A stretch of 32,000 nt of DNA from Flagellimonas sp. 389 (GCF_018449435.1 NZ_JAHCMU010000001.1:247299-279298), one strand, 5' to 3'. Shown: positions 2,155 to 20,749, counted from the stretch's first letter. Notes: a model not told the origin generated them from the sequence alone. Program-made: numbers and translations.

Positions 2155-2155
2155 C

Positions 2156-2674
2156 ATGGATACGTCTTTAGTTTATGATTTAATTTTTAACTGGCTTCGA
2201 TTCGAAGACAAAACAATTAAAGGACCAAACTCTAACAAGGGAATCTTTTTTATGCCTGAACTCCATTTTGTATTTGAAGTGGGTAAACTATTGAAAATAT
2301 TTGAGTTAGAAGTATTTGGAAAGCCCGTAGAGTGGCTTCGGGAACAGAGTTTTGATAATAGCGGCCCCATAGATTTACTTTTTCGGGATGAAGAAACAGA
2401 AGAATACATCATTTTTGAATTTAAGATAGCCACCACTTGGCACGCTTATTTTAAGGATATTGAAAAATTAAAGACTTTGAAGGATTTGAATATGTCTAAA
2501 ATAAAATCAAAATATTTTATTGCCTTAACAGATGTATTTTCGTCACAATTACAAAATGACCCACGAGTTCAAAAATTGAAAAAAAAAGGTATTGAAATAC
2601 ATGAATCATTAAAATCTTTTGAAATTGATAAAAAAATATCTGCCTTATTATTCTTATGTAAAGTGGTCCAATAA
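2156..2674 (+). CDS. hypothetical protein (172 aa) with a possible PD-(D/E)xK-like motif
   Basis: The ATG lies 1 nt after the dnaE stop and the ORF is uninterrupted. The stretch GPIDLLFRDEETEEYIIFEFKI resembles a PD...ExK nuclease core. No family was recognised. The gene is visibly more AT-rich than dnaE and trxA. Confidence 0.55.
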   Translation: MDTSLVYDLIFNWLRFEDKTIKGPNSNKGIFFMPELHFVFEVGKLLKIFELEVFGKPVEWLREQSFDNSGPIDLLFRDEETEEYIIFEFKIATTWHAYFKDIEKLKTLKDLNMSKIKSKYFIALTDVFSSQLQNDPRVQKLKKKGIEIHESLKSFEIDKKISALLFLCKVVQ

Positions 2675-2768
2675 GTTTTACCAATAGATCAATAATTAAT
2701 TCGTATATGGTATCCGTAAGGAAAGTGATTGATATTTGACTAAATTTGCAAACAATAAAACAAATAAA

Positions 2769-3086
2769 ATGGCACTAGAAATAACAGATGCAACTTTTGA
2801 TGAAGTAGTACTTAAAAGCGACAAACCTGTCGTTGTAGATTTTTGGGCGGCTTGGTGCGGTCCTTGTAGAATGGTAGGTCCCATTATTGATGAAGTGAGT
2901 ACTGAATATGAAGGAAAGGCGGTTGTTGGAAAAGTGGACGTAGATGCCAACCAACAATTTGCAGCTAAGTATGGTGTGCGTAACATTCCTACAGTACTTG
3001 TCTTTAAAGATGGTGAAATCGTAAACCGTCAAGTTGGTGTATCTCCAAAAAAAGTATACACAGATGCAATAGAGGCTGTATTATAA
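2769..3086 (+). CDS. trxA: thioredoxin
   Basis: The WCGPC active site is present (FWAAWCGPCRM), the length is the typical 105 aa, and the protein starts MALEITDATFDE at ATG 2769. The 11 extra N-terminal residues in the ORF track are not thioredoxin-like. Confidence 0.95.
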   Translation: MALEITDATFDEVVLKSDKPVVVDFWAAWCGPCRMVGPIIDEVSTEYEGKAVVGKVDVDANQQFAAKYGVRNIPTVLVFKDGEIVNRQVGVSPKKVYTDAIEAVL

Positions 3087-4226: not shown

Positions 4227-4300
4227 GGTCTGGTAGTTCAGTTGGTTAGAATACCTGCCTGTCACGCAGGGGGTCGCGGGTTCGAGTCCCGTCCAGACCG
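4227..4300 (+). tRNA. tRNA-Asp (anticodon GTC), no encoded CCA
   Basis: A manual cloverleaf folds as follows: acceptor GGTCTGG/CCAGACC, D-arm GTTC..GAAT, anticodon stem CCTGC/GCAGG with loop CTGTCAC, T-arm GCGGG-TTCGAGT-CCCGT, discriminator G. Confidence 0.93.
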
Positions 4301-4303
4301 CTT
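4280..4303. repeat. attL core: 24-bp direct repeat GTTCGAGTCCCGTCCAGACCGCTT (3' 21 nt of tRNA-Asp plus 3 nt)
   Basis: An identical 24-mer recurs at 22061-22084. A tyrosine integrase gene follows each copy. Confidence 0.85.
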
Positions 4304-4398: not shown

Positions 4399-4420
4399 TA
4401 AAAGGTGAGCAATTCGGTGC
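4399..4420 (+). repeat. 22-bp repeat TAAAAGGTGAGCAATTCGGTGC, left copy (candidate integrase arm-type site)
   Basis: An exact second copy lies at 21985-22006 near the other island end. A degenerate version (AAAAGGTCACAAATCGTCAAC, 22182-22202) sits at the same ~97-98 bp distance from the second att core. Confidence 0.5.
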
Positions 4421-4553
4421 GCATTTCATCATCAAAAAAATGCTCACCGCCATCGCTGTAATTGACTGTTTTATAATTTATTGCAAGGATTTGTTAACAT
4501 TTATTTAAGACCCCTTTTTGTACCTTCAAAGTGTTAAATCAAAACCTTTTGCC

Positions 4554-5789
4554 ATGTTCACCACAATCAATGTCATTTTTTACCCCAAAAAAAGAAAATC
4601 AAGCAACAATAAATTAGTGCCTATTTATGCCCGTATTACATTGGACAGTAAACGTGCAGAGTTCAGTACAGGCAAACAAGTCGACCCCTTAAAGTGGGAT
4701 GCCAATACCGGTAGATTACGAGGGAAAACTCCAGAAACACTGGTATTGAACCGATTCTTCGATGCCTTGAAAGCCAAGTGTGTTTCCATCTATGACGAGT
4801 TGGTTCGCAATGAAGAATACGTGGATGCCGATGCCGTGAAGAACATCTTTTTGGGCAAGGGCCAAAAACAATATATGATCTTGGAAATATTCCAAAATCA
4901 CAATGATGAAATGGAAAGTTTGGTTGGCAAGGAATATTCCGCAGGAACACTCCAACGATATAAAGCCGCTAAATCACATATCTCCGATTACATAGTACAC
5001 AAGTACCAAAAAAAGGATTTCCCTCTTAAAAAGCTCGATTATGAGTTTATAACGGGCTTTGATTACTTTTTAAAGAGCAAAAAAAACTGCTCTCACAATA
5101 CAGCGACCAAATATATCGTCAATTTCAAGAAAATTGTTCGTATCGCATATGCCAATCAATGGATTGATCGAGACCCTTTCTTCCATTGGTCTGCAAGTTG
5201 GAAACAAAAAGAGCGGGAGTTTCTAACACACGAGGAACTGGAATCGATGCTAAAGCAAGAATTTGAATTTGAAAGATTGGACACAGTACGGGATATGTTT
5301 TTATTCTGCTGTTATACCGGACTGGCTTTTGCCGATATTGAAAAATTGACAAAGGATGATCTGGTCAAGGACATCAAAGGAAACAAATGGATCAAGACCA
5401 AAAGGAAAAAGACCAAGGTTTTGAGCAGTATTCCATTGTTGAGCATTCCAGAGGCCATAATCGATAAGTACAAAGATCATCCCAGAGTGATTGAAAAAAA
5501 GACATTGCTACCTGTATACACCAATCAGCGAACCAATTCCTATCTAAAGGAAATTGCCACAGCATGTAAAATCAAAAAGACATTGACCACACATTTGGCC
5601 AGACACACATTTGCGACGACCGTGACCCTTTCCAATGGGGTGCCGATTGAATCCGTGAGCAAAATGCTGGGGCATACCTCTTTGAAGACGACCCAGATCT
5701 ATGCCAAGGTATTGGACAGCAAAATTTCGGACGACATGGAAAAATTGAAAAATGACCCAGCCCTATTGGAGTTCGCCAAGTCCATTTGA
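4554..5789 (+). CDS. tyrosine-type site-specific integrase (Bacteroidota family), island 1
   Basis: The C-terminal catalytic block is HLARHTFATTVTLSNGVPIESVSKMLGHTSLKTTQIYAKV (HxxR ... H ... Y). The gene sits 250 bp downstream of the tRNA. ATG 4554 (MFTTINVIFYPKK) is preferred over the TTG at 4518. Confidence 0.93.
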   Translation: MFTTINVIFYPKKRKSSNNKLVPIYARITLDSKRAEFSTGKQVDPLKWDANTGRLRGKTPETLVLNRFFDALKAKCVSIYDELVRNEEYVDADAVKNIFLGKGQKQYMILEIFQNHNDEMESLVGKEYSAGTLQRYKAAKSHISDYIVHKYQKKDFPLKKLDYEFITGFDYFLKSKKNCSHNTATKYIVNFKKIVRIAYANQWIDRDPFFHWSASWKQKEREFLTHEELESMLKQEFEFERLDTVRDMFLFCCYTGLAFADIEKLTKDDLVKDIKGNKWIKTKRKKTKVLSSIPLLSIPEAIIDKYKDHPRVIEKKTLLPVYTNQRTNSYLKEIATACKIKKTLTTHLARHTFATTVTLSNGVPIESVSKMLGHTSLKTTQIYAKVLDSKISDDMEKLKNDPALLEFAKSI

Positions 5790-6136
5790 AACTTTTTTAT
5801 TCGCTTGCCCACAAGTTGTTCTGATTTGGGACACTTCAATTTAATTTGATACAGTTTGGAAAAATCAAAAAGTAGAAATTTAGAACTTTCCTTGTTTAAT
5901 AATTGTTTTATCTAGTTTATATATGTTTTATATAAGGTACCAGTGCTTGTCCACAGCTTGTCTCGATTTTGGTACAGTTTCGGTACAAAGCTTGTCCCAA
6001 TTCTAAACTAGTTGACTTCATTTGTTTTGATGTGATTTGGTTGTCTTCGCCGTTCTCCCCAAGTTATCTACAAACAAATATTCTTACTACCTAACTCCTC
6101 AATAAAGACTACAAAATGAGTTTTTACCTGTTTTGG

Positions 6137-6205
6137 GCTATAAAATTGTAATTTATAGCTCAATTTTTAGTTATTTTTGAGCTATAAAAGTTAAGTATAT
6201 AGCTC
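6137..6205 (+). promoter_or_regulatory. candidate fic promoter/operator: two tandem palindromic units plus a TAnnTTTG-type -7 box
   Basis: IR1 is GCTATAAA-n7-TTTATAGC (6137-6159). IR2 is GAGCTATA-n11-TATAGCTC (6179-6205) and abuts the fic ATG. TATTTTTG at 6172-6179 fits the Bacteroidota -7 consensus, and a TTG lies in the IR1 spacer (6146-6148). Confidence 0.35.
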
Positions 6206-7315
6206 ATGACAGCATTTAAATGGAACTGGCAGCAAAAGGGTTGGCCCAATTTTACCTATGATGAGGCAGCTTTGAAGGACTTGGAATATCAGTTTGTGCA
6301 AACAAGTGGTGTTGCTCTTGGTTCCATAAAACATATTGATGCAGATGACAAGAATGAGCTTTTGATTGAGGTTTTGTCGGATGAGGCCCTTACTACCTCG
6401 GCCATAGAAGGGGAATATCTTGATCGCGGGAGCATACAGGAATCCATAAAAAAGAATCTAGGCCTTGAAACCGAAAGAAAAAAACTTCCACAAGCTGAAT
6501 ATGGTATATCTGAAATGATGGTCAACCTCTACCGAACATATGCAGAACCTTTGTCCCATGAGCACCTTTTTGAATGGCACCGAATGCTTACCTCCGGTAG
6601 AAGGGATCTATTGGGTATTGGAAAATATCGTTCCCATGATGACCCTATGCAAGTTGTTTCAGGGCGTTTGGATAAACCAACCGTCCATTATGAAGCTCCT
6701 CCCTCAGCACAAATGACAAAGGAAATGGAAACTTTTGTTTCTTGGTTCAATGAAATTCATAGTGAAAATAATTCCAAGATGCTTCCATTGGCCAAGTCCG
6801 GGATAGCACATTATTATTTTTTAGCTATTCATCCCTTTGAAGATGGCAATGGACGTATAGCCAGAGGACTTTCTGAAAAATCAGTGTCCATGGATTTGGG
6901 GAGATCAGCACTTATTTCATTGTCACAAACTATTGAGTCCAATAAAAAGGGTTACTATTCTGCTTTGGAAGCCCATAATTTCAAATTAGATCTCACCGAA
7001 TGGCTTGTGTACTTTGGAGAAACCATAATTGCCGCTCAACAACATACGGTAAGAACTATTGATTTTTTGATTCAAAAAGCAAGATTTTTTGACCGTTTCT
7101 CACCATTAATGAATGACCGTCAACTTAAAGTGGTACAACGTATGTTCAAAGCTGGATATACAGGTTTTAATGGTGGACTCAGCGCGGATAACTATATTAG
7201 TATTGCCCGTACTTCTGCATCAACAGCCACCCGTGACCTAAAGGATTTGGCAGACAAATCCATACTTATTAAAACAGGAGAACTCAAAGGCACCCGGTAT
7301 TCACTAAACTTATGA
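6206..7315 (+). CDS. Fic family protein (AMPylase-type fold) with an internal inhibitory motif and a C-terminal wHTH-like tail
   Basis: The Fic motif HPFEDGNGRIARGL is present. An N-terminal (S/T)xxxE(G/N) motif is present (TSAIEG). The N-terminus WNWQQKGWPNFTYD is typical of the Fic N-terminal extension. The C-terminus ARTSASTATRDLKDLADKSILIKTGELKGTRYSL is wHTH-like. Confidence 0.92.
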   Translation: MTAFKWNWQQKGWPNFTYDEAALKDLEYQFVQTSGVALGSIKHIDADDKNELLIEVLSDEALTTSAIEGEYLDRGSIQESIKKNLGLETERKKLPQAEYGISEMMVNLYRTYAEPLSHEHLFEWHRMLTSGRRDLLGIGKYRSHDDPMQVVSGRLDKPTVHYEAPPSAQMTKEMETFVSWFNEIHSENNSKMLPLAKSGIAHYYFLAIHPFEDGNGRIARGLSEKSVSMDLGRSALISLSQTIESNKKGYYSALEAHNFKLDLTEWLVYFGETIIAAQQHTVRTIDFLIQKARFFDRFSPLMNDRQLKVVQRMFKAGYTGFNGGLSADNYISIARTSASTATRDLKDLADKSILIKTGELKGTRYSLNL

Positions 7316-7824
7316 ATTAGGTAAGAAAGAGTCCATAAAAATATTTAAGTGGAATTGGTAGTCATGTCAAATCTTCACGATTTCCCCCTAAACCTAATGT
7401 TCTTCACGGCAAACGCAATCCTTTAAGATTAAATAGCTGATTTTAAATATTTTACACGATAAATTCAGGTCAGTTAACCGAATTCTGAACCGTTTTCAAA
7501 TCGGTACATACAGAGACAAAACTTATGGATGTTTTACACCACTAATTTAGTCAAAATATTTCAGCCATATAAAATGGGCTTCCCCAAATTATAAAATAAC
7601 TGAGTAACTGTAAAACTAAATGAACAAGGAATTCACTGCTATAGAAAAACTTGCTTCCTTCCCTTTGGCTAATCGTAACAAGATTATTTTAACTTTGTGT
7701 AAGTCTATTCTTTAAATTTAAGGTATATCTCATTACTGCAAGTCAATGACCACATACCAAATTTGTTATTGAATAATGATTAGGATTTAAGTATATTGGC
7801 AACAAAGCTTATTATATAATACAT

Positions 7825-8892
7825 ATGACCAAATTACCAAAACTAAAAGCAGTTGATTTTTTTTGTTCAGGAGGAGGCATGAGTTTTGGGATGCAAGAAG
7901 CTGGCATCAAAATTCTTGCTGGAATTGATTTTGATATTAGTTGTAAAGAGACATATGAATCTAACATAACAGGAGCTGATTTTATCCATGCTGATGTTTT
8001 TGATTTAAGTGAAGACTATTTAACACAAAGACTCTCCCTAAAAAAAAATGACGATGAGCTTGTTTTAATTGGTTGTAGTCCATGCCAATTTTGGAGTATT
8101 ATCCAAACCGATAAATCCAAATCTTCAAAATCCAAAAACTTACTCAAAGAATTTAGACGTTTTGTAGAACATCTCAATCCTGGTTATGTCGTGGTTGAAA
8201 ATGTACCTGGGGTTTTAAGAAAAAAAAGGGCAAGTGGTTTGTCTGGATTTGTAAGGTTGCTTAAAGCAAATGGATATAAAGTCCACTTTGATGTTCACGA
8301 AGTAAGTGAGTACGGTGTTCCACAGCATCGTAGAAGATTTACTCTTATTGCAAATAGAGTTACCCCAATAGAAGTTGCACCTATTCCATTAAGTGGCAAT
8401 AAAGTAACGGTTAGAGATGTTTTAGGAGAACATAATGGATTTCCTAAAGTACCCCAAGGGCATAAAGATGACACACCTTTCTTACATCGCGTTGCTGGAT
8501 TAGAAAAAATAAACTTAGAAAGACTTGCTATGACCCCTAAAGATGGAGGTACTAGATTAGCATATGTTGATAATGAGGAATTGGCACCAAAATGCCATAA
8601 AGGCAAAAAAGATAGTTTTAAAGATATATATGGAAGAATGTGGTGGGATCGTCCCGCTCCTACCATTACAACTAAATTTTTTAGTTTGTCCAACGGACGA
8701 TTTGGTCATCCCGAGGAAGATAGGGCAATTTCTTTGAGAGAAGGTGCAATCCTTCAATCCTTCCCAATAGATTATGTTTTTAAAACCAACAGCATTGCCA
8801 ATACTGCCAGAATGATTGGTAACGCTGTTCCGCCGAAGTATGCAACTGCTATAGGTAAAGCGATAATTGAAAATCATTACAATGCAGTTTAG
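7825..8892 (+). CDS. DNA (cytosine-5)-methyltransferase
   Basis: C5-MTase motifs occur in the canonical order: I DFFCSGGGMSFG, IV GCSPCQFWS, VI ENVPGV, VIII QHRRRFTLIA, X GNAVPP. Target specificity cannot be read from the sequence. Confidence 0.95.
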   Translation: MTKLPKLKAVDFFCSGGGMSFGMQEAGIKILAGIDFDISCKETYESNITGADFIHADVFDLSEDYLTQRLSLKKNDDELVLIGCSPCQFWSIIQTDKSKSSKSKNLLKEFRRFVEHLNPGYVVVENVPGVLRKKRASGLSGFVRLLKANGYKVHFDVHEVSEYGVPQHRRRFTLIANRVTPIEVAPIPLSGNKVTVRDVLGEHNGFPKVPQGHKDDTPFLHRVAGLEKINLERLAMTPKDGGTRLAYVDNEELAPKCHKGKKDSFKDIYGRMWWDRPAPTITTKFFSLSNGRFGHPEEDRAISLREGAILQSFPIDYVFKTNSIANTARMIGNAVPPKYATAIGKAIIENHYNAV

Positions 8893-11785
8893 GACAAAAG
8901 CTAGAGCAGTAGACTTATTGGGTAAGGGACAAATAGCAGATTTACCCACTGCTATTACAGAATTATGGAAGAACGGTTATGATGCTTACGCTGATAACTT
9001 AAAAGCCGAATTATTTAAAGTGGGATTTCAGGGTCTCTCCCAATCCTATTTTAAAATTTCCGATGATGGAAAAGGAATGTCAAACTCCGACATTTTAGAT
9101 AAATGGCTGGTATTAGGCACAGATTCAAAATCAAGGGCCAAAATAGAGGACGAATCAGAAGAGACTTTATGGAAGTCCCCCCGTATTAAGGCTGGAGAAA
9201 AAGGAATAGGACGTTTGTCCGTTGCTTACTTAGGGAATCCAATGTTGATGCTAACTAAGAAATTGGGGCACTCAATGCAAGCTGTATATTTTGACTGGAG
9301 ATTATTGGAAAACTATAATCTATTCTTGGATGACATAGTAATCCCATTGAAACCAGTGGAAGATTTAAATTGTTTACAGGATATTTTCAAAAGCTTAAAA
9401 AGCGACTTTTTATCAAATTTTGAAAAAGAAGTAGATTTAAACAATGAGCCAATCTGGGAAGAAGGGCAAAATGAATTAAAATCAGATATCATTTTAGATA
9501 CGGAGGAGGCAGTTTTAGAAAATCCTATCCTTAATAGTATTTCATCTTTCTATAACACAAATGATTCCCATGGTACCTTTTTTTTAATCTTTAATCCCAT
9601 TTCTCAAATTGTTGAACTTTCGGAAAGGGATGAAGATAATATGGAAGACAAGAATTTTGTCACATCCAGTTTGACTGGTTTTACCAATCCTTTTTTAGAA
9701 AAGCCGCTAAAAATTAATACTTCTTTTGATATTCATAGTGAATCAGAGACCTACGATTTACTACAATCCCGAGGTGAATTTTTTAATCATTCTGATTTTA
9801 AGTTGGCCGATGTTTATATCAAAGGAGAATTTGATGGCAAAGGAACTTTTATTGGAAAGATTAGGATATTTGATAAGACAATCGACTATTCTTACACAAA
9901 TCCAAGAAAAAAAGATAAACGTTCATTTTATGGTAAAATCCCAATTGAACTTGGCTATTCACAAGGAGAAGAAAAATCTTCTACATTATCAGATGTTCAA
10001 TTCAATAAAATTTCAAATAAGGCAAAGGAATACGGTGGGTTGTATGTATATCGAGATAATTTTAGGGTATTACCATATGGTAGAGAAAATGCAGATTTCT
10101 TAAATTTTGAATTAAGAAGATCTAAAAGAGCAGGTACGTATTATTTTTCTTATCGTCGAATGTACGGCTACTTGGATATAACCCGGGAAAGAAATCCAGA
10201 TTTAAAGGATAAATCAAGTAGAGAAGGGTTAATTAACAATACAAAATATCGTGCATTTACAAGTGATGCAATTAACATGTTTGTTGCGTTAGCACAAGAC
10301 TTTTTCGCAACTAATCCAAAACAATCTGTTTTTAGGGACAAACTAAAAGAAAATCAAGATCAAAATGAAGCTTTAAAAGCAGATAAGGCGCGAGAAAAAA
10401 GTGAAAAAATTGCTTTTACACGTTCCTTGAATGAGTATCCTGAAAAACTAAAACTGCATCAAAAAAAATACGAGGAACTTCTAAATATACTTGACAAAAA
10501 ATTAAATCAAATACATTTAGGCTATTCTGAAGTCGAAAATATTTTGGAACAGCTTCAAAAATTAGACTTGGAACTCCAAAACCTGATTCCAAAAGTACCC
10601 AAAAGATACAAGCCTACTGATACTCAAACAGAGCGATTGTACAAATTTGAAAATAAGCTCAACGGCTATATTGAAAAAGTAGCTCCGAAAAGGGATGTAT
10701 TGATAGAAAAAGCACAAGATCGTCTGGAAATCAAAGATTTGCAGATTGATTTAACAAAAAGATACAATAACTATATTTCTTCTTTGGAAGAATTGCTCCA
10801 AAAACACAGCCAAAAACTCAAAGTTAAATTTAACAGCCTATTAGAGGATTATGGCGAACGGTCTAAACTACTATTAAATGTACTTGGCGAGGGCAAGAAT
10901 ACAATAATAAATCAAATAACTTCCAAAGAACAAGTCGCCCAATGCGCAAAGGAAATTGAGAAAAAATACATCAAAGTATTAGAAAAAGCCGAGAATACAT
11001 TATTCCCGTTAACAAATCATATTGAACGTTTATCCATTGACATTGATGAAGAGTTAGTTCAAGGTGCTTATAAGGCCCAGTATGACCAAATGAAATATCA
11101 GTGGGAACAAACTAGAGATACTGCACAATTAGGAATTGCGGTGGAAATCATTGATCACGAGTTTAATCAACTTTATGCAAAAATTAATACCCAATTAAAA
11201 ATACTAAGTACAAATAATGTAGTAAAATCGATTAAAGAGTTTAATTATCTAGAAACGAATTTCAAACAATTGGAGGACAAATATGCCTTGTTATCACCAT
11301 TATATCGGATATCCGGAGCTCTAGCCAAGGATGTATCCTGTCAATCTATCTACAGCTATTTATTAGAATTTTTTGAAAATCAAATTGATGAATACAACAT
11401 CATAATTGATGTCACAGATAGTTTCAAAAAGCATCATATTACTATTAAAGAACCTATTATTTATACGGTTTTCATTAACATAATAAATAATGCAATTTAT
11501 TGGATGAGAAACAAAGATTCTCGACGAATAAAATTAGATTATTGGCCAGAAACGAATGAGATACTTTTAATAAATTCTGGTGAGAAAATACCTGAATATA
11601 AACTAAAAAGAATCTTTGAATTATTTTACTCGCAACGCCCAAATGGAAGAGGGATTGGACTTTACTTGTCGAAGCAAAGTCTAAACGAAGCAGGTTATGA
11701 TATTTATGCTACAAATGATGAAAAATTTAATTCGTTGAACGGAGCTTGTTTCGTTATTAACCAAATAAACAAAGGGGATGTATAG
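8882..11785 (+). CDS. dual Bergerat-fold ATPase: N-terminal MORC/Hsp90-like GHKL module, coiled coil, C-terminal histidine-kinase core (H-box plus CA domain)
   Basis: The N-terminal part has ELWKNGYDA (ExxxNxxDA), DDGKGM (DxGxG) and GEKGIGRLS. The centre is a long heptad-rich helical region. The C-terminal part has an H-box-like AVEIIDHEFNQL (His codon 11156-11158), N-box INIINNAIYW, a degenerate G1 NSGEKIP, F-box IFELFYS and G2 GRGIGLYLSKQ. ATG 8882 overlaps the MTase stop by 11 nt. Confidence 0.85.
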   Translation: MQFRTKARAVDLLGKGQIADLPTAITELWKNGYDAYADNLKAELFKVGFQGLSQSYFKISDDGKGMSNSDILDKWLVLGTDSKSRAKIEDESEETLWKSPRIKAGEKGIGRLSVAYLGNPMLMLTKKLGHSMQAVYFDWRLLENYNLFLDDIVIPLKPVEDLNCLQDIFKSLKSDFLSNFEKEVDLNNEPIWEEGQNELKSDIILDTEEAVLENPILNSISSFYNTNDSHGTFFLIFNPISQIVELSERDEDNMEDKNFVTSSLTGFTNPFLEKPLKINTSFDIHSESETYDLLQSRGEFFNHSDFKLADVYIKGEFDGKGTFIGKIRIFDKTIDYSYTNPRKKDKRSFYGKIPIELGYSQGEEKSSTLSDVQFNKISNKAKEYGGLYVYRDNFRVLPYGRENADFLNFELRRSKRAGTYYFSYRRMYGYLDITRERNPDLKDKSSREGLINNTKYRAFTSDAINMFVALAQDFFATNPKQSVFRDKLKENQDQNEALKADKAREKSEKIAFTRSLNEYPEKLKLHQKKYEELLNILDKKLNQIHLGYSEVENILEQLQKLDLELQNLIPKVPKRYKPTDTQTERLYKFENKLNGYIEKVAPKRDVLIEKAQDRLEIKDLQIDLTKRYNNYISSLEELLQKHSQKLKVKFNSLLEDYGERSKLLLNVLGEGKNTIINQITSKEQVAQCAKEIEKKYIKVLEKAENTLFPLTNHIERLSIDIDEELVQGAYKAQYDQMKYQWEQTRDTAQLGIAVEIIDHEFNQLYAKINTQLKILSTNNVVKSIKEFNYLETNFKQLEDKYALLSPLYRISGALAKDVSCQSIYSYLLEFFENQIDEYNIIIDVTDSFKKHHITIKEPIIYTVFINIINNAIYWMRNKDSRRIKLDYWPETNEILLINSGEKIPEYKLKRIFELFYSQRPNGRGIGLYLSKQSLNEAGYDIYATNDEKFNSLNGACFVINQINKGDV

Positions 11786-13469
11786 TCAAAAAGCATATGA
11801 CATATTGGACTCATCTATAAATTCTGCCGTATTTATTGATGAAAAAGCAAAAGATTTTTTTTCAGAAACTGCCATTGATACCAATATACCAGAAGAAAAA
11901 TTATCTGTGGATCTATTCAAAACTTTTAAAGAAAATGGTAAAAACTTAGCAATACATAAGTTCGAGGTATCTACTCTAGAGAATTCAAAAACTTTAGATT
12001 ATTTATTCAATGGAAGAGATTTAATTCTTTTGGATTGGGAACTTGCTGATGTTGCAGGGCAAGAACATTCACTGAAACTGTTGAATAAAGTTATTGGCAC
12101 ACCATGCATTAATTTTTGCTGTATTTATTCAAGCTCGGCAAATTTTAATCAAATTCCACTTTTTCTAGAAGCCTATTTTTCTGGGGTGACTAAAGCAGAA
12201 TATGATTCTATTAAGGAAACATATGGACATGTTGAAATAAAGGAAGTAGAAGAAATTTGGGGCAAGAGCATTGGAGAAATAGAAGCTTTTTTTAATGAAA
12301 ACAAGATTGAAAGACAAGGTTTCCCAATCGAAAGGCTGCGAAAAAAGCCTATAGATTTGATACTGCGCCATTTATATGTTTCTCTAGTCAGTGACAAAGT
12401 TATTATTCCCGAGCAGGCACAAAAGGAATATGAAGTATTGAATACTGGAAATGATTCTTTTATTATCAATAATACTTTTGTTCTGACCTTAAAAAAAGAT
12501 GTCTCTGAGGATTCGGATTACAAAAAATTACTTAAAAGAATTTCCGATACTATTATAAAAAATAATGGCAGTTTTTTTCAGTTGTTGGGTATGGAAATGC
12601 AGTCCGTTTTTAATTCAAACGAACGATTCATCGATGATACCATTCTGAAATCTTCCACAGAAGCTCTTTTTCAATTTAGAAATCATATTCGAGACGACAA
12701 GACATTTGGCATTATTATCAAAAAACTACTAATTGAGCAAGCAACTCTTAAACTGAGAACGGCTAAACTAAAATTATTAGAAACCGAATTCTTAGACTAC
12801 AAAAGTGGAGAACTTAATGACAAAGTACCTAACCTCGAGGATCTTTTTCAGTTAAATGTATTTTATAATTCCGTTTCTGTTAAGAGTCTGCACCCAAATG
12901 ATATACCAAACTTGAATTTTGGGGATGTTTTTAAAGATTCAAATGATGAATACTACCTATGCATAACCGCCTTATGTGATTGTTACTATCCAAATAAAAT
13001 TCAGCATAATTTTTATTTTGCCAAAGGCAACGAATTTAGGGATAAAGAATTGGCTTTAAAATTGGGGGATACTGCTTTTATAAGCTTTTTACCTAATAAC
13101 AAAGTTGTCCATTGGGGAGATATCGAATATGTTAGAAAAGAAAAGATAAAAAAAGGTGATAACGAATCAGAAGATGAATTCAAAAATCGAAAATGTAATA
13201 ATGAGCTAGAAGCTTATAAAGTATTTCTTTATAAGCCTTTTTATATAAAACCTAAAGTTTACAATGTTGAAAACAATAAGTTGGAAGATAATAAGATTAG
13301 AATTTGGGATATAACAAACAAAATCACAAAACAAGGTAACGAGCACAATTTAAACTATTTTCATGTTGAATACATAACCACTCTTAGGGAAGATTATACA
13401 CAAAGAATTGCCAATCATGCTTTTGGCCACCCCTCAAGAGTAGGCGTTGATTTTGTAAAAATCAAATAG
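11778..13469 (+). CDS. receiver (REC)-like domain protein with an uncharacterised C-terminal module (candidate effector)
   Basis: The N-terminus has REC-pattern residues at CheY-like spacing: FIDE (D21/E22), DLILLDWEL (D86, codon 12033-12035), CCIYSSS (S118) and VTK (K139). I could not assign residues ~150-563. The ATG overlaps the upstream stop by 8 nt (ATGTATAG). Confidence 0.75.
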   Translation: MYSQKAYDILDSSINSAVFIDEKAKDFFSETAIDTNIPEEKLSVDLFKTFKENGKNLAIHKFEVSTLENSKTLDYLFNGRDLILLDWELADVAGQEHSLKLLNKVIGTPCINFCCIYSSSANFNQIPLFLEAYFSGVTKAEYDSIKETYGHVEIKEVEEIWGKSIGEIEAFFNENKIERQGFPIERLRKKPIDLILRHLYVSLVSDKVIIPEQAQKEYEVLNTGNDSFIINNTFVLTLKKDVSEDSDYKKLLKRISDTIIKNNGSFFQLLGMEMQSVFNSNERFIDDTILKSSTEALFQFRNHIRDDKTFGIIIKKLLIEQATLKLRTAKLKLLETEFLDYKSGELNDKVPNLEDLFQLNVFYNSVSVKSLHPNDIPNLNFGDVFKDSNDEYYLCITALCDCYYPNKIQHNFYFAKGNEFRDKELALKLGDTAFISFLPNNKVVHWGDIEYVRKEKIKKGDNESEDEFKNRKCNNELEAYKVFLYKPFYIKPKVYNVENNKLEDNKIRIWDITNKITKQGNEHNLNYFHVEYITTLREDYTQRIANHAFGHPSRVGVDFVKIK

Positions 13470-13777
13470 CTTCTATTGCTGACAATTTCAGGAATTATTT
13501 AATTGCTAGAAAGGATTACTATTATCCTTTACAAAACTACTGAATCATTAATCTTACAGCCTCTGAAGGCTCCCCTGTTTTCCTGAACATCGTCCAAACC
13601 CAGTTCGGGGTCAAGTATACTCATAGGGAGGCATAGAAATGCACGTACCGTCAACAGCAAATCTGCATGACCGTCCACATTAAAAAAGAAGGGTCGGAGT
13701 ATGGTAGTTCCTGTGGAGTCTCAAATTCTTTATAAGCTTTTCTTCGTTCGGGTTCATGGATTCATAATTTTATAGTA

Positions 13778-14125
13778 TTACTTATCTTCAAGTTCCAATA
13801 GCCTTTCGTCCAGTTTGTCCATAAAGTACATTTGGCTATCGGGAAGGATGGACAGTACCAGTTCCAATACCTGTGTGACACTGTCCTCCTTTGATGCATT
13901 CCTGTTTGCAGGTGACATCATCATCCCCTCCCCATCAAGGGCGAACACACAGACCTCCAAAAGACTTATTATCTGTGCCAACAAATGGTTATTGTCCCTG
14001 ACCTCGAAGGATACATAGTTTCCTTTAGCATCACCGGACTTTTTGTTTCCCAAAAGTCCCGAAAGATTGTTCCTGAGCTGTTGTATATCCTCTAGGGTCC
14101 TTAGCCTTTTCCTCTTTGATTTCAT
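13778..14125 (-). CDS. hypothetical protein (115 aa), paralogous to the C-terminus of the upstream 403-aa protein
   Basis: The gene starts 9 nt after the stop of the 14135-15346 gene on the same strand. Its sequence aligns with that protein's C-terminal ~115 aa (EVCVFALDGEG...VTQVLELVLSILPDSQMYFMDKLDERLL vs KVCITALEVEN...VREVLGYVLDLVPHEEMEFLDKIGKLL). Confidence 0.7.
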   Translation of the reverse strand: MKSKRKRLRTLEDIQQLRNNLSGLLGNKKSGDAKGNYVSFEVRDNNHLLAQIISLLEVCVFALDGEGMMMSPANRNASKEDSVTQVLELVLSILPDSQMYFMDKLDERLLELEDK

Positions 14126-14134
14126 ATTGTTGTT

Positions 14135-15346
14135 TTAATCGGTTGTGCTGGTCTGTTGTTCCGATAACAGTTTCCCGATCTTGTCAAGGAATTCCATTTC
14201 CTCATGCGGCACTAAGTCCAGAACGTACCCCAGTACCTCCCGTACATTATGTTCAGGCTGTTGGACAGACCTGTTTGGGAAGTTTTCCACTTCCAGTGCT
14301 GTGATACAGACCTTGATCAGGTTGGTAATCATAAACGAGGTGTCCAGATAGCCATCGGTCAACAGATCGATACTGTAGGTTCCCCTCTCCGGGCTATAGG
14401 GCTTTAAGGTGTAAAAGTGTTCCTCCTTCAGATCCTTTAGTTTTTCCAAGAGGGATTTTCCCTGTCCGTCATTTTCATTGTTCTTTTCAGGGAGGGTTTC
14501 GTCTCTGGTATCCGGCTCCTTGCCCTCGATTCGTTCCTTACAGTAAGCAAGGTGACGTTGGAAAATGGACTGCACCTCTTGGATGAATCCTATTAGTTCT
14601 GTTTGGATAGTTTTGGCCTGATTTTTTGTAATCTCAAATTCGCTGCCGTAACGCGCCACACTGTATGCATGCTCCAAGAGGAGCAGCAGTTCGTTGTTGT
14701 CCATTTTGGAGGTTTCCGAAAAGGGATGCAACGTTGGAAAGAAAGGCATGCAATAATTGATATGGCTGATAATGCTATGGGTCACCTTGCTCTTTCCGAT
14801 GCACATCTGTTCGATGAAACGGAACGCAAGCTCAAAGGCTTGATGCATGTTGAACGTGGCTATGGCATGGTTACCTTCCCCTATCAATATGTTCGCTGTG
14901 TTCGCAAAGGCTTTTATCTTTCCCATTTCAGAATCAAAATAACGGGTGGCCCTGTAGATGAGTGTCTTGTGCACTATTTCGGAATAGTCCATGATGTTCT
15001 CCCCCTCGGGATGGGCAAAGATGTTCTCCCCGAGACAGCAATGTTCCAAGAAATACAACGACCCCCTTTCAAGGCCAATTTCGGACTGGTTCTCCGTGTA
15101 GATCCTTATCCTGAAATCGGGATGCTCCTTTCCCTTTTTGGTCACAAGGGAACGGATTTCGTTGGGAAGTGGGTCGTTGTTGACATCAACAAAGAGGGTT
15201 ATGATATGATATTCAATATCGCCCTCTTTCTGTGGTCTGGACAGAAAGACCCTATCGATGGTAATGATGTTCAGGATGCCATCGAGCAAATTAGAGAGTT
15301 CTTCCGCTCTTTCAAAGTTTTCCGGTATGTTTGTGCCATGTGTCAT
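14135..15346 (-). CDS. hypothetical protein, possibly a degenerate nucleotidyltransferase-like N-terminus plus a HEPN-like helical domain
   Basis: This is a 403-aa uninterrupted ORF. The block GNHAIATFNMHQAFELAFRFIEQMCIGKSKVTHSI resembles a HEPN helix pair, but with Kx4H instead of Rx4-6H. The N-terminal region lacks the GS...DxD NTase motifs. The coding call is solid and the functional call is weak. Confidence 0.7.
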   Translation of the reverse strand: MTHGTNIPENFERAEELSNLLDGILNIITIDRVFLSRPQKEGDIEYHIITLFVDVNNDPLPNEIRSLVTKKGKEHPDFRIRIYTENQSEIGLERGSLYFLEHCCLGENIFAHPEGENIMDYSEIVHKTLIYRATRYFDSEMGKIKAFANTANILIGEGNHAIATFNMHQAFELAFRFIEQMCIGKSKVTHSIISHINYCMPFFPTLHPFSETSKMDNNELLLLLEHAYSVARYGSEFEITKNQAKTIQTELIGFIQEVQSIFQRHLAYCKERIEGKEPDTRDETLPEKNNENDGQGKSLLEKLKDLKEEHFYTLKPYSPERGTYSIDLLTDGYLDTSFMITNLIKVCITALEVENFPNRSVQQPEHNVREVLGYVLDLVPHEEMEFLDKIGKLLSEQQTSTTD

Positions 15347-15490
15347 GAGATCGTGGTTTAAAAGGTTCGAGAATCACTGACCATATTAAGCCCACATTGC
15401 CAAGTACCCCACCATGTGCACTTGTATTTTATCGGAACTGTTTTGTATTTTACAATCGGATTATTGTGGGAAACACCCTATATTTGAAGT

Positions 15491-15877
15491 ATGCAGACAA
15501 AGACCAAGAACAACCATATAGGTAGAAAAATCGGTAGGATCAGGGAACTCCGTGGGATGAAGCAGGAGACCTTGGCCGAAGAACTGGGCATCAGCCAACA
15601 GGCCGTTTCCAATATCGAGAACAGCGAGAAGGTGGATGATGCGAAACTGGAAGAGATTGCTTCAGTTTTAGGAGTGACCAAAGAAGGTATTGAGAATTTC
15701 TCGGAAGAAGCAGTATTTAATATTATCAACAATACTTTTAAAGATAATAGCTCCAACAACAATAATTATCTCTGTACTATAAATCCAATTGAAAAAATTA
15801 TTGAATTATACGAGCGTCTTGTACAGGCAGAAAAGCAAAAGGTAGCATCCTTAGAAAAACGGTTGAGCAAAGACTAA
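15491..15877 (+). CDS. XRE-family helix-turn-helix transcriptional regulator
   Basis: IGRKIGRIRELRGMKQETLAEELGISQQAVSNIENSEK is a classic Cro/C1-type HTH. The gene is divergent from the 14135-15346 gene. Confidence 0.9.
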   Translation: MQTKTKNNHIGRKIGRIRELRGMKQETLAEELGISQQAVSNIENSEKVDDAKLEEIASVLGVTKEGIENFSEEAVFNIINNTFKDNSSNNNNYLCTINPIEKIIELYERLVQAEKQKVASLEKRLSKD

Positions 15878-15891
15878 TTTTGTCTTATAGT

Positions 15892-17499
15892 TTAATTTCG
15901 CACAAAACCTAAGGGTGTTTTTTCATCAAAGTCTCCATAAACCACTGGATTCTGACTATTATTAGTGTAAATTTTAACTTTTTCCGTGACGTATTTCACG
16001 ACTTCATCAATTGTTAAAATCTTATCAGAGTTATAATCCGCTGAACCGGACAACGCTTCTATTAGATAGTAGGAAAAAATACCCCTTCTTATTCCCTTTA
16101 TCTCCGTCGAAATCTCATCTGCTTTTGATGATAAAAACAACAAACTCCCACCCTTAGAATCTTTGAAGGCTTGATAATATGAGCCAATACCATCTATATT
16201 ACTTTTTGATTGGTTTATTATACTACCAGAATGGCATGCGTCGGCGATACAAATTTTAGTCTTGGCAAGACTTTTTTCAAAGATTTTCTTTATCTCATTA
16301 TGAGAGACTAAATATCCGTTTGAGGAATCTTTGTCATATCCAACAAAACTTCCTTTAGCCCCATGTCCAGAAAAATAAAACAAAATCAAATCATTAGAAT
16401 CGGCCTTTTCAGCAATGTAATTAAGACTTTTTAAGATCTTACTTTTGGTTGCATCTTCATCAATCAGTCTAAATATTCTGTCCTTGTGAACCGCACCCCC
16501 TTCTGGACTTCTTAAAAATGAATATAAATCTTGGGCATCATCATCAGCATAATTCAAACTCCTTTGATTTTCATATTTGGCAACTCCTATTACCACAGCA
16601 TACGTATTTATATTTTCATCAGTTGAAAAATTTGACTGTGATTGATCTAGTGACATCATTCCATCAATTTCTTGACTTTCCAATTCTTGGTCAATATCAA
16701 CACTTACAGTTAGAAAGCTTTCCCCACCATATACCACTTTTGAAATCAACTTGTTATGATCATGGGAATAGCTGAAAATATCATAAGGTGAGCTAAACAT
16801 TTCAAGTTTATACTTGGATGTTTTTACACTTCTGGGAAAACCACTTGCTATCCATGTTCCATTCTCATAAAATAAAGACTTAAGCCGTTTAATACCTCCC
16901 ACATTCTTTATTGCTTGATCAATATTAACATCCAAAGAATAAGAAAAATAAGATGCTGGGAATTCATTGGACATGACCACATACCAATATCCATCAATAA
17001 AGCAAACTGAATTAATACTCATATTTTTTAAATTGGAATCTATATTTGCTCTAGGAAATATTCTTGCGCTAAACAGCTCTTGATCATAGTCTGCTCCTTT
17101 TCTTTCAAAAAGAATTCTTATTGTTTGATAATCCCTGTCGTACTCCAAATCAATTACAAAAAAACCAAGCTGTTTATTATAATTAATTGTTCTATTTAAA
17201 GCCTCGCTTTTAACCGACATCAATTTCTGTTCCCCTCTGTTGTTGTGGATATCATTATAATGCCCAACAACCCATCCTTCAGGGCCTTGCTCTATATCCC
17301 ATACAAAATATCCAGCATCACGGACATCATTCATCAACAAATCTAAATCATATCCTATTCTATAATTAGATCTGCACAAATAAGGATCGTTGCAAAACAA
17401 GCCAATCCATGGTTTGGACTGTCCATATAAGGAGGAGAAATTGGTATACAAGAACAGAAATAAGCTAAAAAAACAAATAAGTTGATTCTTTAAATACAT
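15892..17499 (-). CDS. secreted caspase-family (peptidase C14) protein with an unknown N-terminal domain
   Basis: An N-terminal signal-peptide-like segment is present (LICFFSLFLFLYTNFSSLYG/Q). The C-terminal half has the caspase His/Cys dyad context: LILFYFSGHGAKG and KICIADACHSGS, preceded by YAVVIGVAKYENQRSLNYADDDAQDL. Confidence 0.88.
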   Translation of the reverse strand: MYLKNQLICFFSLFLFLYTNFSSLYGQSKPWIGLFCNDPYLCRSNYRIGYDLDLLMNDVRDAGYFVWDIEQGPEGWVVGHYNDIHNNRGEQKLMSVKSEALNRTINYNKQLGFFVIDLEYDRDYQTIRILFERKGADYDQELFSARIFPRANIDSNLKNMSINSVCFIDGYWYVVMSNEFPASYFSYSLDVNIDQAIKNVGGIKRLKSLFYENGTWIASGFPRSVKTSKYKLEMFSSPYDIFSYSHDHNKLISKVVYGGESFLTVSVDIDQELESQEIDGMMSLDQSQSNFSTDENINTYAVVIGVAKYENQRSLNYADDDAQDLYSFLRSPEGGAVHKDRIFRLIDEDATKSKILKSLNYIAEKADSNDLILFYFSGHGAKGSFVGYDKDSSNGYLVSHNEIKKIFEKSLAKTKICIADACHSGSIINQSKSNIDGIGSYYQAFKDSKGGSLLFLSSKADEISTEIKGIRRGIFSYYLIEALSGSADYNSDKILTIDEVVKYVTEKVKIYTNNSQNPVVYGDFDEKTPLGFVRN

Positions 17500-17773
17500 A
17501 TAGTGCTGGTTTAGTGTTCATTATAAAATTACAATATTATCATAACAAATGGTTTGTTAAATCTGACCACAATATTTTAATTTGTTGACAGTGGAAAACA
17601 ATACAACTTATGTCAATAGGCTAAGAAATATTGTCCTCGGTTATTAATTTTCATTTTTATAAGTTTAAAAAGCGAGCGAAACCATGTTTCGCGCTGCAAG
17701 CGTCCCAAAACCTTACCCTTAATCTAATACTACTGAGCGAGGCAACTTCATCTATTTATCGGCTATATTCTTC

Positions 17774-18343
17774 TCATCGTGTATGAGAATCCAAAGGTCT
17801 GTTGGTTTCATGTCTATATCTTTCCAACCGCCCTTCCGTTATCTCAAGCTTCAGGTAGCCTTTCCCAAAACTGCTCTTGACCACCTTGACATTTTCAAGG
17901 ATGCTCTTTAAATCTGCTTGAAGTGAGGCCGCCTTTTCCTCCAAACGGTCATACTTGATTCTGGGAATCATCGTTTCACCATCAAACACAGGTACTCGCT
18001 TTGGGGGATTCTTCTCGGTCATGTCCTCAATAAAATCAAATTCATCCTCTTCATTATCCAGTTCCTGATTGAACAAAGCCTGCATCATGCCAATGGTGGG
18101 AAGTGTCTGGTTCTTTTCAATGTCCCTGATAATCGCAATAACTGCATCTGTCCGTTTTCTATTCTTGCGAATCTCCTGACCGATACTTTTTTCAAACCTT
18201 TCTGAAGGTAGGAACCCATGCCACTCAAAAAAATCCATGACCATATCCAAGGTATGGGAATAACTCTTACCCATTTTTCTTGAAAAGCTCTTAAATCTGG
18301 ATAGGGTCTTTTTCTTTAACCTAACTGCTCTAAAATCATCCAT
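17774..18343 (-). CDS. BfmA/BtgA-like mobilisation protein (MobA-type DNA-binding accessory protein)
   Basis: MDDFRAVRLKKKTLSRFKSFSRKMGKSYSHTLDMVMDFFEWHGF...RTDAVIAIIRDIEKNQTLPT matches my recollection of Bacteroidota BfmA/BtgA proteins. ATG 18343 is preferred because the 33-residue N-terminal extension in the ORF track looks non-native. No relaxase gene follows. Confidence 0.65.
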   Translation of the reverse strand: MDDFRAVRLKKKTLSRFKSFSRKMGKSYSHTLDMVMDFFEWHGFLPSERFEKSIGQEIRKNRKRTDAVIAIIRDIEKNQTLPTIGMMQALFNQELDNEEDEFDFIEDMTEKNPPKRVPVFDGETMIPRIKYDRLEEKAASLQADLKSILENVKVVKSSFGKGYLKLEITEGRLERYRHETNRPLDSHTR

Positions 18344-19233
18344 AATACTTGTTTTAAGGTCACAATTGTTACAATTCTGTTCAGTGTTTACAGGTATTAA
18401 TAGCTTTATTGCAACAATCCACATTAAACTTCCTAAAATCAACCATTTCCAAAAACCCTAACAAACAGGGCTTTTCCGAAGGAAAATGCATCAGCAGCGT
18501 CGCTTTAGCGCGCTACCCTCTTGCTCTTCATTGTCCCGCAAGCGGGACAGAACAAAGACAACCTGATTTGAAAATCAGTTGCCCTCACTATTATTATTAA
18601 TCTGGTTTGTACGGACTTTGGGAAAGTCAAATCAAAAATGAAAGACCGCACTATGAATATTATTCTACAACAAATTAAAGATACAATTTTTGGTACAAGA
18701 AAGGGTTGCACTGTTCTCGAAGGAAAATGAATTTGCAATTCGAGTGAATCTAAGTAACTGCCCCTGTAAATTCTTAATGTTCTCAGTGTCTATGATATTG
18801 CACTGTCCCAGTGACTTTCTAAGAATTCCCCTTTAAAAAAATATATTCAACTGTCTATTAGACTTTAATAGAAAGAACACCGCCTTGGTGTATTGTCGTC
18901 TTGCTCAACCATTTTTCCAAAAAAATGAAAAACCGCTAAGACCTGTGTCCTTTGACCACAGTATTTAAGGTAAATAATTCATTTTTGAAATTTATAAGAG
19001 CTGCTAAATTCTAGGACATTGGGCTGTCCCATCAAATTTTGCTGAAATCCCCTAATCTTTTTTTTGTACAGCTTCTCAATTGTCCCATCGTAATCGGACA
19101 ATTAGAAAATAATCAAAAAGATTTTATTAATTCGACTTTCGGCGTTTATAAGCATTCTTCTCCTTTACCAACACCCTTTCTAAGGTTAATCGTAAATCCC
19201 TGAATTTATGAAGTTTTAAATAGAGGATTTTTA

Positions 19234-19691
19234 ATGTTCAATAAAATTGCCCATATCTCTTTGGTTGTAAAAGATTATGATAAAGCTATCGATTCTTACG
19301 CTCAAAAGCTGGATTTCGTTCATATTAAGGATACTAGAATTGATGAATCCAAAAGATGGGTGATTATTGCACCAACAGGAGCAAAAGAATGCTGCTTGCT
19401 TCTCGCTAAAGTTACCAACGAGAAACAATTTGCCAGTATTGGAAACCAAACAGGAAGTCGGTCGGGTTGGATTTTTCCTTTTCACCGATGATTTCATTAG
19501 AGACTACAACAAACTTGTGAATCGTGGGGTAACACTTGTAAGATCACCTAAAAAAGGAACCCTACGGGGTTGTGGGCGTGTTTCAAAATCTTTATAGTAA
19601 TTTGTGGAACCTATTGGAGCCTAATGAGAAAAATAAGGGGCTATCATATAATAGAAATATAAGTTCAAATGAGCGATGGGAACTAAACTGA
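19234..19691 (+). pseudogene. VOC (glyoxalase/bleomycin-resistance/dioxygenase) family gene disrupted by two frameshifts
   Basis: Frame a reads MFNKIAHISLVVKDYDKAIDSY...IGNQTG. Frame b reads GRVGFFLFTDDFIRDYNKLVNRGVTLVRSPKK. Frame c reads YGVVGVFQNLYSNLWNLLEP. Together they rebuild one VOC protein. The shifts lie near 19455-19465 and in the A-run near 19548-19556. The 3' end is uncertain. Confidence 0.75.
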
Positions 19692-19792
19692 ATGAAATAT
19701 AATAAAACTTGGGTATAGCCATCTCGAATGGAAGTACATGCCAAATCAAATTCAGCATATAAATCCCGTTGTGCACAATTTGTAGAAACTTT

Positions 19793-20593: not shown

Positions 20594-20749
20594 AAACTGA
20601 GTATAGCATATATTATAATTGATTGCACGTTCACACCTACTTAAGAAAATCCGTGCTGATTTTCAGTTTGTTGCGTACTTGCAAAGTTAATCACATAAAG
20701 ACTCACAGCCGAAACCGTTAACGGTAATTTATAACTCACAATACAAACA

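Follow-up and report, generated by a model that had tools for sequence, protein, structure and literature searches.

The closest described relatives of the locus reported here, a three-gene block at positions 7825-13469 of a 32,000-nucleotide stretch of Flagellimonas sp. 389 DNA (hereafter the window), are the HEF_HK/Response_reg_2 proteins of Bellieny-Rabelo, Pretorius & Moleleki (2021, Genome Biol Evol; PMC8011034), whose study is the source of the Pfam models HEF_HK (PF19191) and Response_reg_2 (PF19192). Across 644 regions from 628 strains, linkage between a response-regulator-like (RR-like) gene and a histidine-kinase-like (HK-like) gene reached 91.6%, with genes counted as linked when they lay within three genes of each other. 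The HK-like proteins are soluble, and 174 of 222 sequences belong to 'group 1', with the domain order HATPase_c_3+HEF_HK+HATPase_c. An upstream methyltransferase (MTase) gene showed 'striking conservation', Vsr was frequent and occurred in 20 genera, restriction-modification (R-M) domains were enriched around the RR-like gene, and the neighbourhoods contained many nuclease domains. The authors proposed descent from paraMORC ATPases and suggested a cytoplasmic two-component system that regulates R-M systems; the C-terminus of the RR-like protein was given no function, and the study included no experiments (PMC8011034).

The window block is a member of this family. It shows all five family traits, namely an RR-like protein with Response_reg_2 alone, a group 1 HK-like protein, proximity of the two genes, an upstream C5-cytosine MTase and solubility. 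It also has the published structure and gene order, and Bacteroidota are among the host phyla reported (PMC8011034). The first-pass annotation of the window had called the system undescribed and unlike any named one. That claim fails because the triad matches a system already described, an outcome that the annotation had itself listed as counter-evidence: the HK-RR pair, the upstream C5-MTase and the paraMORC origin were all published in 2021 (PMC8011034). Compared with the family at large, the window copy is minimal, with neither Vsr nor an accessory nuclease; it is of value as a compact set of three genes that lacks accessory genes and is suited to experiment, rather than as a new system. 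What is new here is the presence of the triad in 18 of 18 loci, its co-evolution, the conservation of its residues, the small number of separate nucleases, and a confident C-terminal model without a match. The gene family is widespread and has had Pfam models since 2021, and about 10% of complete E. coli genomes contain a degraded copy. Our exhaustive search for the gene 3 family returned 268 clusters (50% identity) from 1.84 billion proteins, spread over several phyla, and no gene 3 copies were found on plasmids.

In the paraMORC/MORC R-M operons of Iyer, Abhiman & Aravind (2008; PMC2292703), as in the cassette, an N-terminal GHKL domain with intact motifs is encoded beside a cytosine methylase, often with Vsr and on mobile DNA. 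Members of paraMORC1-5, however, pair with superfamily II (SF-II) helicases or fused nucleases, and receivers or two-component systems are not mentioned in the text (PMC2292703), whereas the gene 2 head is fused to a full kinase core, with dimerization and histidine-phosphotransfer (DHp) and catalytic ATP-binding (CA) domains, and is partnered by a receiver protein. MORC and paraMORC proteins are defined by an S5 transducer domain; the likeness of gene 2 to them lies in its GHKL domain.

Detocs, an anti-phage system, follows the same logic, in which a cytoplasmic sensor histidine kinase hands phosphate to a receiver fused to an effector; for the cassette, this logic is a proposal drawn from sequence. 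In Detocs (DtcA, DtcB, DtcC) the sensor is of the TPR type, a REC protein serves as buffer and the effector is of the purine-phosphorylase type; to our knowledge, the system lacks a methyltransferase. The cassette departs from it in the ways that the first-pass annotation had listed: an MTase is present, the head is GHKL rather than TPR (Pfam detected no TPR), and there is no second receiver gene to act as a buffer. PADLOC called only the MTase, with no match for genes 2 and 3, whether whole or split. A DefensePredictor HATPase/REC prediction was considered as the same triad and set aside, being an unvalidated system that is listed with a purine phosphorylase domain and looks Detocs-like. MADS, an eight-gene system, is likewise different from the triad.

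GHKL-Shedu (VcSduA/paraMORC3) likewise has a GHKL head that is proposed to act in phage defence as the gate of a C-terminal effector, but there the head is fused directly, in one protein, to a DUF4263 PD-(D/E)xK nuclease (PMC12137116). It has no kinase core, receiver or MTase, whereas the cassette would link its head through a proposed His-Asp relay to a module without a matched fold. Classical Type II R-M systems with a Dcm-type methylase share translational coupling of the methylase gene to downstream genes, island-borne mobility and a Vsr companion. In contrast to them, the cassette has no recognisable restriction endonuclease and encodes two large signalling proteins instead.

We read the cassette as an R-M-like module for self/non-self discrimination whose restriction arm is gated by a phosphorelay, and we give this reading a probability of roughly 45%. 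More tentatively, this may be the first restriction-like immune module whose restriction arm is licensed through a His-Asp phosphorelay, with a DNA-engaging paraMORC-kinase fusion and a receiver protein whose output is an effector of a fold absent among solved structures. All the evidence gathered is compatible with this bolder reading, which the 2021 paper, limited to a regulatory connection with R-M systems (PMC8011034), did not reach. If phosphorelay-gated restriction is true, a signalling step interposed between the sensing of DNA and the effector would be a new principle of R-M control, and the system would offer a biochemical read-out for bacterial MORC-type ATPases together with a new effector fold.

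Three coupled genes inherited as one unit

The cassette is a real, tightly coupled and mobile unit of three open reading frames (ORFs), all on the plus strand. Gene 1 (7825-8892; 355 aa) encodes a C5-cytosine DNA methyltransferase, identified by Pfam, TIGR00675, PADLOC and conservation; gene 2 (8882-11785; 967 aa from its ATG) encodes a soluble HK-like protein recognised by Pfam; and gene 3 (11778-13469; 563 aa) encodes an RR-like protein, defined as an ORF and by Pfam, that matches, at 100% identity, the Flagellimonas sp. 389 protein entered at NCBI as 'response regulator receiver domain'. The overlapping stop and start codons described in the first-pass annotation are confirmed at both junctions. 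The gene 2 ATG (8882-8884) lies inside gene 1 by 11 nt, the MTase stop being the TAG at 8890-8892, and the gene 2/gene 3 junction reads ATGTATAG (11778-11785), an 8-nt overlap that contains the gene 3 start and the gene 2 stop. Gene 2 truly starts at the ATG at 8882 rather than at a TTG further upstream (8867): alignments with orthologues begin at M1-Q2-F3-R4, and these four residues are invariant.

The same arrangement recurs elsewhere. We compared 18 loci, comprising the window, 7 close Bacteroidota relatives found by genome scan (58-69% gene 3 identity) and 10 divergent loci (24-47% identity to the search-profile reference sequence) that include Sulfurimonas, a TARA ocean contig and a root metagenome. 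The order MTase, HK-like, RR-like is collinear in every one of the 18, down to members with just 24-30% identity, with unrelated flanks, and the junction gaps measured in 10 other loci range from -56 to +18 nt; the synteny foreseen for genes 2, 3 and the MTase thus holds across all neighbourhoods. Mantel tests on the pairwise-identity matrices (p = 2e-4) show strong correlation between the MTase and HK-like proteins (r 0.84), the MTase and RR-like proteins (r 0.75) and the HK-like and RR-like proteins (r 0.94), which argues that the three genes are inherited and transferred together as a unit. Divergence is fastest in the RR-like protein, at 25-69% pairwise identity; the HK-like protein spans 40-82% and the MTase 44-94%.

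The commonest neighbour is Vsr, which adjoins the cassette in 8 of the 18 loci and is absent from the other 10, the window among them. Its frequent presence suggests that the MTase, whose catalytic motifs are all intact, deposits real 5-methylcytosine (5mC) in vivo. E. coli MutL stimulates Vsr, and the cassette could be pictured as surveillance for 5mC damage, in which the MutL-like head would work with Vsr on the repair of T:G mismatches left by deamination while the kinase and receiver signal or recruit repair. The Vsr association (20 genera in PMC8011034) and the place of the head in the MutL/MORC branch of GHKL proteins fit this picture, but most of the loci do without Vsr, and Vsr accompanies C5-MTases generally, whatever their partner. 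Surveillance of this kind would also leave the island mobility and the strictly conserved receiver-output protein unexplained, and we consider it very improbable.

Other neighbours across the loci include HNH_2, McrB-N-like, PD-(D/E)xK and AAA_15 genes. In a Sphingobacterium thalpophilum metagenome-assembled genome (L003), the N-terminal half of the HK-like gene (5036-6475) has an in-frame stop, the mark of either a pseudogenised copy or an assembly error; a second C5-MTase lies upstream at 1774-3048. On the root-metagenome contig (L008), about 4 kb from the cassette, positions 12772-15671 encode an unrelated HATPase_c_3 protein (655 aa) beside an SMC_N/AAA_23 ATPase, so that two different GHKL-based modules share one neighbourhood.

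Conserved catalytic residues

Gene 1 matches PF00145 (E 3.5e-48), TIGR00675 and PADLOC MTase_II (E 6e-88), and its PCQ (P86-C87-Q88) and ENV (E125-N126-V127) catalytic motifs are invariant in 14 orthologues. These matches and intact motifs agree with its initial assignment as a Dcm-type MTase.

Gene 2 opens with a GHKL ATPase head of the MORC/paraMORC type (aa 23-144; 8948-9313, plus strand) that matches HATPase_c_3 (PF13589) at 43.3 bits and E 4.7e-11. Across 14 orthologues with 41-73% identity, the Bergerat motifs of the head are invariant (E27/N31/D34, D61-D62-G63-x-G65 and G105-x-x-G108-x-G110). Mean column identity is 97% over the first 40 residues (8882-9001), even with orthologues whose overall identity falls to 41%; this stretch, which holds Bergerat motif I and overlaps the end of the MTase gene, is the most conserved of the whole cassette. 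Next comes a middle region delimited by conservation (aa 145-748; 9314-11125, plus strand). It has a conserved globular part at aa ~380-450, where R391-D-x-F-R-V-L-P-Y-G-R401 is invariant, and a linker at aa ~480-745 that is rich in charged residues and Leu and poor in Pro and Gly, and is likely a coiled coil judging by this composition. Sequence searches with aa 1-480 and aa 151-743 found no family match.

The kinase core begins with a DHp/H-box region (HEF_HK; aa 749-811; 11126-11314, plus strand) that matches PF19191 at 71.3 bits, against a cut-off of 24.1, with E 9.7e-20. The predicted phospho-accepting H759 (codon 11156-11158) lies within an invariant E-I-I-D-H and is followed by an acidic residue (E-I-I-D-H-E). 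The CA domain (aa 858-959; 11453-11758, plus strand) matches HATPase_c (PF02518; 49.1 bits, E 9e-13), and its N, F and G2 boxes are invariant in the same 14 orthologues (N866/N869/N870; F912/F915; G922-x-G924-x-G926-L). Its G1 box is N-S-G instead of the canonical D-x-G. A dead kinase was considered on account of this Asn-for-Asp change and dropped, as alignment places the same variant at that position in the solved histidine kinases 3a0t ('NSGPPIPE') and 8dx0 ('NRGKTIPE'). No transmembrane segment is present, the maximum Kyte-Doolittle mean over 19 residues being 1.01, compared with a usual level of ~1.6 for a transmembrane helix. The HATPase_c_3, HEF_HK and HATPase_c matches, with their invariant motifs, uphold the original description of gene 2 as a GHKL head joined to a histidine-kinase core.

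The receiver domain of gene 3 (Response_reg_2; aa 13-240; 11814-12497, plus strand) was defined by PF19192, an AlphaFold 2 (AF2) model and Foldseek. PF19192 matches aa 13-155 at 80.8 bits, against a cut-off of 27, with E 1.8e-22; in the model, a helical insert of ~100 aa splits the domain between strand 4 and strand 5, and Foldseek matched the model to REC domains with probabilities up to 1.00. Among 116 full-length representatives from the exhaustive family search, the phospho-acceptor pocket is retained, as the first-pass annotation had supposed from a single sequence, with D21 conserved at 100%, D81 at 96%, the predicted phospho-acceptor D86 (codon 12033-12035) at 100%, S/T118 at 91% (Thr) and K240 at 99%. 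N31, D34, H759 and D86, the positions proposed for mutation, are thus all kept in the family.

The family has nonetheless diverged far enough from HisKA and Response_reg to need separate Pfam models, its G1 box is non-canonical, and its REC domain carries the ~100-aa insert. These features would suit a complex that works independently of a phosphorelay, with the kinase and receiver domains as scaffolds and ATP binding or hydrolysis as the driver, as in MORC and MutL clamps. We find such a complex quite improbable: H759, D21, D86, S/T118 and K240 are kept at 91-100% down to ~25% identity, which is hard to explain without catalysis, and the G1 variant is the one carried by solved histidine kinases. 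With pocket and kinase residues conserved and a REC fold modelled, the phosphorelay in our reading of gated restriction is as strongly backed as sequence allows.

The gene 3 C-terminal module and a possible gated restriction arm

Beyond the receiver, gene 3 runs through a helical linker that AF2 models with low confidence (aa 241-365; 12498-12872, plus strand) into a C-terminal module delimited by conservation and AF2 (aa 366-563; 12873-13466, plus strand). Family-wide motifs of the module (F381-G-D383, C395-x-T397-x-x-C400-D401-C402, W446, Y540-x-Q542-R543-x-x-N546 and R554-V-G556) cluster in aa 381-446 and 540-556, with a variable insert at aa 447-490. The full-length model of gene 3 has a mean predicted local distance difference test score (pLDDT) of 76.5 and returned only REC matches in Foldseek, while a model of aa 350-563 built with 108 diverse sequences reached a pLDDT of 92.1 and a predicted template-modelling score (pTM) of 0.85. 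For the C-terminus, Pfam gave nothing at E up to 10 and no recurring family over 56 divergent members, in keeping with the first description of gene 3 as a receiver followed by a region of no known family.

The conserved Asp/Cys cluster, together with the Gln/Arg/Asn helix, hints at an active site that binds metal or phosphate; to label the module a nuclease would be a guess. A PD-(D/E)xK identity, considered from the alpha-beta-beta-beta-alpha-beta order around D383, was ruled out: the third strand carries no conserved (D/E)xK, and Foldseek matched the module to none of the many solved PD-(D/E)xK enzymes. An HNH identity was ruled out as well, H547 and H551 being kept in close relatives only and not family-wide. 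Over genes 2 and 3 together, Pfam, PADLOC, PDB profile and Foldseek searches found no PD-(D/E)xK, HNH, GIY-YIG or other nuclease family.

The gene 3 C-terminus is our candidate effector, as the only constant component without an assigned role. Its invariant polar residues (D383, C395, C400, D401, C402, Q542, R543, N546 and R554) and its confident fold argue for this role, as does the count of separate nucleases, with a recognisable one (HNH_2, HNH or NOV_C) adjoining the cassette in only 5 of the 18 loci and none recognisable in 13. In those 5 loci the nuclease directly adjoins the triad, often a few nt from the gene 3 stop, and several loci have uncharacterised co-directional downstream genes, including tightly spaced unannotated ORFs. 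It is therefore possible that the effector proper is a variable fourth gene and the triad a sensing and licensing core, which would make the window copy incomplete or dependent on an unlinked partner; the many nuclease domains in the published neighbourhoods (PMC8011034) accord with this. We judge it unlikely, because no accessory gene is recognisable in L010, L013 and L018, which are three of the ten loci for which genes were called, or in the window, whose next genes lie 300 nt off, are convergent and differ in GC content. The accessory genes are also heterogeneous, whereas the gene 3 C-terminal module is universal and keeps its invariant polar residues.

The proposal of the 2021 authors would instead make the HK-like and RR-like proteins a regulatory two-component pair that controls the linked MTase and neighbouring R-M genes, the gene 3 C-terminus being a DNA- or protein-binding output. 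We hold this to be rather unlikely. Pfam detected no helix-turn-helix (HTH) or other known DNA-binding output domain in gene 3, 13 of the 18 loci have no recognisable nuclease to regulate, an apparatus of ~1,500 aa with a MORC-type ATPase is uneconomical for one MTase, and the cassette is mobile and island-borne, as defence modules are. In two divergent loci, moreover, the regulator slot is already filled by a small HTH_3 gene directly upstream of or overlapping the MTase start (L009 2810-3061; L019 1831-2031), a position like that of the C-protein controllers of classical R-M systems; the 509-bp gap upstream of the window MTase contains no HTH_3-like ORF. What a regulatory pair does account for is the conservation of all phosphorelay residues, the reported induction of Pectobacterium homologues during infection and stress (PMC8011034) and a C-terminal module without a nuclease signature, and the separate nucleases of some loci would be possible regulated targets.

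For a restriction arm gated by phosphorelay, we infer the following steps. The MTase, its motifs intact, would methylate host DNA as a mark of self. The paraMORC-type head and coiled-coil middle of gene 2 would engage DNA in an ATP-dependent manner and report unmethylated or foreign DNA. Engagement would lead the C-terminal CA domain, whose residues are conserved, to autophosphorylate H759, from which the phosphoryl group would pass to D86 in the conserved pocket of the gene 3 receiver. Phosphorylation would then free the C-terminal module to act on the invader or on the cell. Translational coupling would set the order and stoichiometry of expression, with the MTase first. The Fic, HEPN and caspase genes of the island, the Vsr and nuclease neighbours of other loci, and the published enrichment of R-M domains (PMC8011034) all point to a defence or R-M context for these steps.

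A decayed form of the cassette in E. coli bears on the toxicity of such an arm. A tblastn search of phage records led to a 'histidine kinase-like protein' in an annotated 'remnant integrative element' beside prophage CP-1639. The remnant consists of a head-less HK-like gene (HEF_HK + HATPase_c) and an intact 582-aa Response_reg_2 protein, with no MTase, and lies at an ssrA island, truncated next to IS3 or the island edge. It spans 3.6 kb and occurs at >=99% identity in 560 of 5,426 complete E. coli genomes (about 10%). The E. coli form is a decayed copy and not a designed variant. An MTase-independent variant was ruled out, the HK-like gene being truncated at the island edge next to an IS3 and the copies near-clonal, as was a phage origin, suspected from phrog_8137, the phage-record matches being 'remnant integrative element' entries beside E. 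coli prophages. The E. coli form shows that loss of the MTase can be survived by the kinase core and RR-like protein where the GHKL head has been lost too; a toxic arm whose triggering needs the head would fit this. Copies lie at 2738-6332 of L014 and at 9122-12590 of L016 (E. coli W WFL_RS14640 and WFL_RS14635); the Prokaryotic Genome Annotation Pipeline names the two genes 'ATP-binding protein' and 'response regulator receiver domain'.

Several points weigh against phosphorelay-gated restriction. A literature search found no later functional work on any family member, DNA binding by the gene 2 head is proposed only by analogy to MORC and MutL, and PADLOC-DB v2 (2023) has no model for gene 2 or gene 3. 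Comparisons with Pfam, PADLOC, PDB profiles and Foldseek linked the output module to no nuclease and to no other enzyme. PDB profile searches and PADLOC on the split proteins were empty, and the Foldseek comparison that had been recommended for this region returned no PDB match for the aa 350-563 model (best E 0.58, query-normalised TM <0.3) and no match among the predicted viral structures of BFVD. Nor does the module conserve a His, Lys or Glu such as is usual in common nuclease sites, and the real effector could be a variable fourth gene, missing in the window. The correlated divergence of the three proteins could come partly from shared host phylogeny. Finally, at >=99% identity the E. coli copies are almost clonal, and they may have persisted because they are recent rather than because they are tolerated.

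The tRNA-Asp island

The cassette sits on a tRNA-integrated island, as the first-pass annotation had noted. A tRNA-Asp (GTC) gene found by ARAGORN (4227-4301, plus strand) is followed by a tyrosine integrase with Arm-DNA-bind_5, SAM-like and Phage_integrase domains by Pfam (4518-5789, plus strand). A repeat search showed that the 23 nt at the tRNA 3' end, the left attachment repeat (4279-4301), recur with one mismatch (22/23 nt) at 22060-22082 on the plus strand, against a chance expectation of 0. This second copy marks the right boundary and gives an island of ~17.8 kb. The same annotation had described the cassette as more AT-rich than its surroundings, which is correct for the immediate flanks, with a GC content of 0.30-0.33 over 9000-13500 compared with 0.38 upstream and 0.43-0.45 downstream, but not for the remaining island, the part at 16000-25000 being as AT-rich as the cassette.

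Upstream of gene 1, a 509-bp intergenic gap (7316-7824, plus strand), delimited by ORFs and presumed to carry the promoter, shows no conservation across loci, no Rfam match above threshold and no ORF of >31 aa. The non-coding leader of ~500 bp reported earlier therefore exists as a gap, but the gap is a junction or promoter region and not a structured leader. Downstream of gene 3, folding of 13510-13581 (plus strand) gave two weak hairpins. The one already remarked upon at 13510-13530 is present as a 7-bp stem in the minimum-free-energy fold (z = -2.07 for the region), and a second, terminator-like stem at 13558-13571 has a T-rich tail; both are possible terminators.

By Pfam, the island also carries Fic, HEPN and caspase-domain genes. 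A convergent two-gene module on the minus strand (13778-15346), with a GC content of 0.44, well above that of the cassette, encodes a 403-aa HEPN-domain protein (PF05168, E 3e-7) and a 115-aa partner without a family, and looks like a separate toxin-antitoxin or defence-like module. At 15491-17499, an XRE-type HTH gene (plus strand) is divergent from a gene for a 535-aa caspase-domain protein (minus strand; Peptidase_C14, E 1e-23), and a DUF5677 gene lies at 19769-20593. Fic-domain genes adjoin the cassette in three of the 18 loci, upstream in the window (6206-7315) and downstream in L006 (9783-10742) and L011 (9502-10650). The three Fic proteins are only ~25% identical, and their recurrence could be either a loose association or a coincidence within defence islands.

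The 22-nt sequence TAAAAGGTGAGCAATTCGGTGC forms a perfect direct repeat, with one copy at 4399-4420, ~100 nt downstream of the left attachment repeat, and the other at 21985-22006, ~55 nt upstream of the right attachment repeat. Possible identities are an integrase arm site and a duplicated attachment-site flank. Straight after the right attachment-like repeat comes a second tyrosine integrase (22312-23556), a paralogue of the first, followed by a 414-aa ORF (23729-24973), which suggests that at least two islands are integrated in tandem at one tRNA-Asp.

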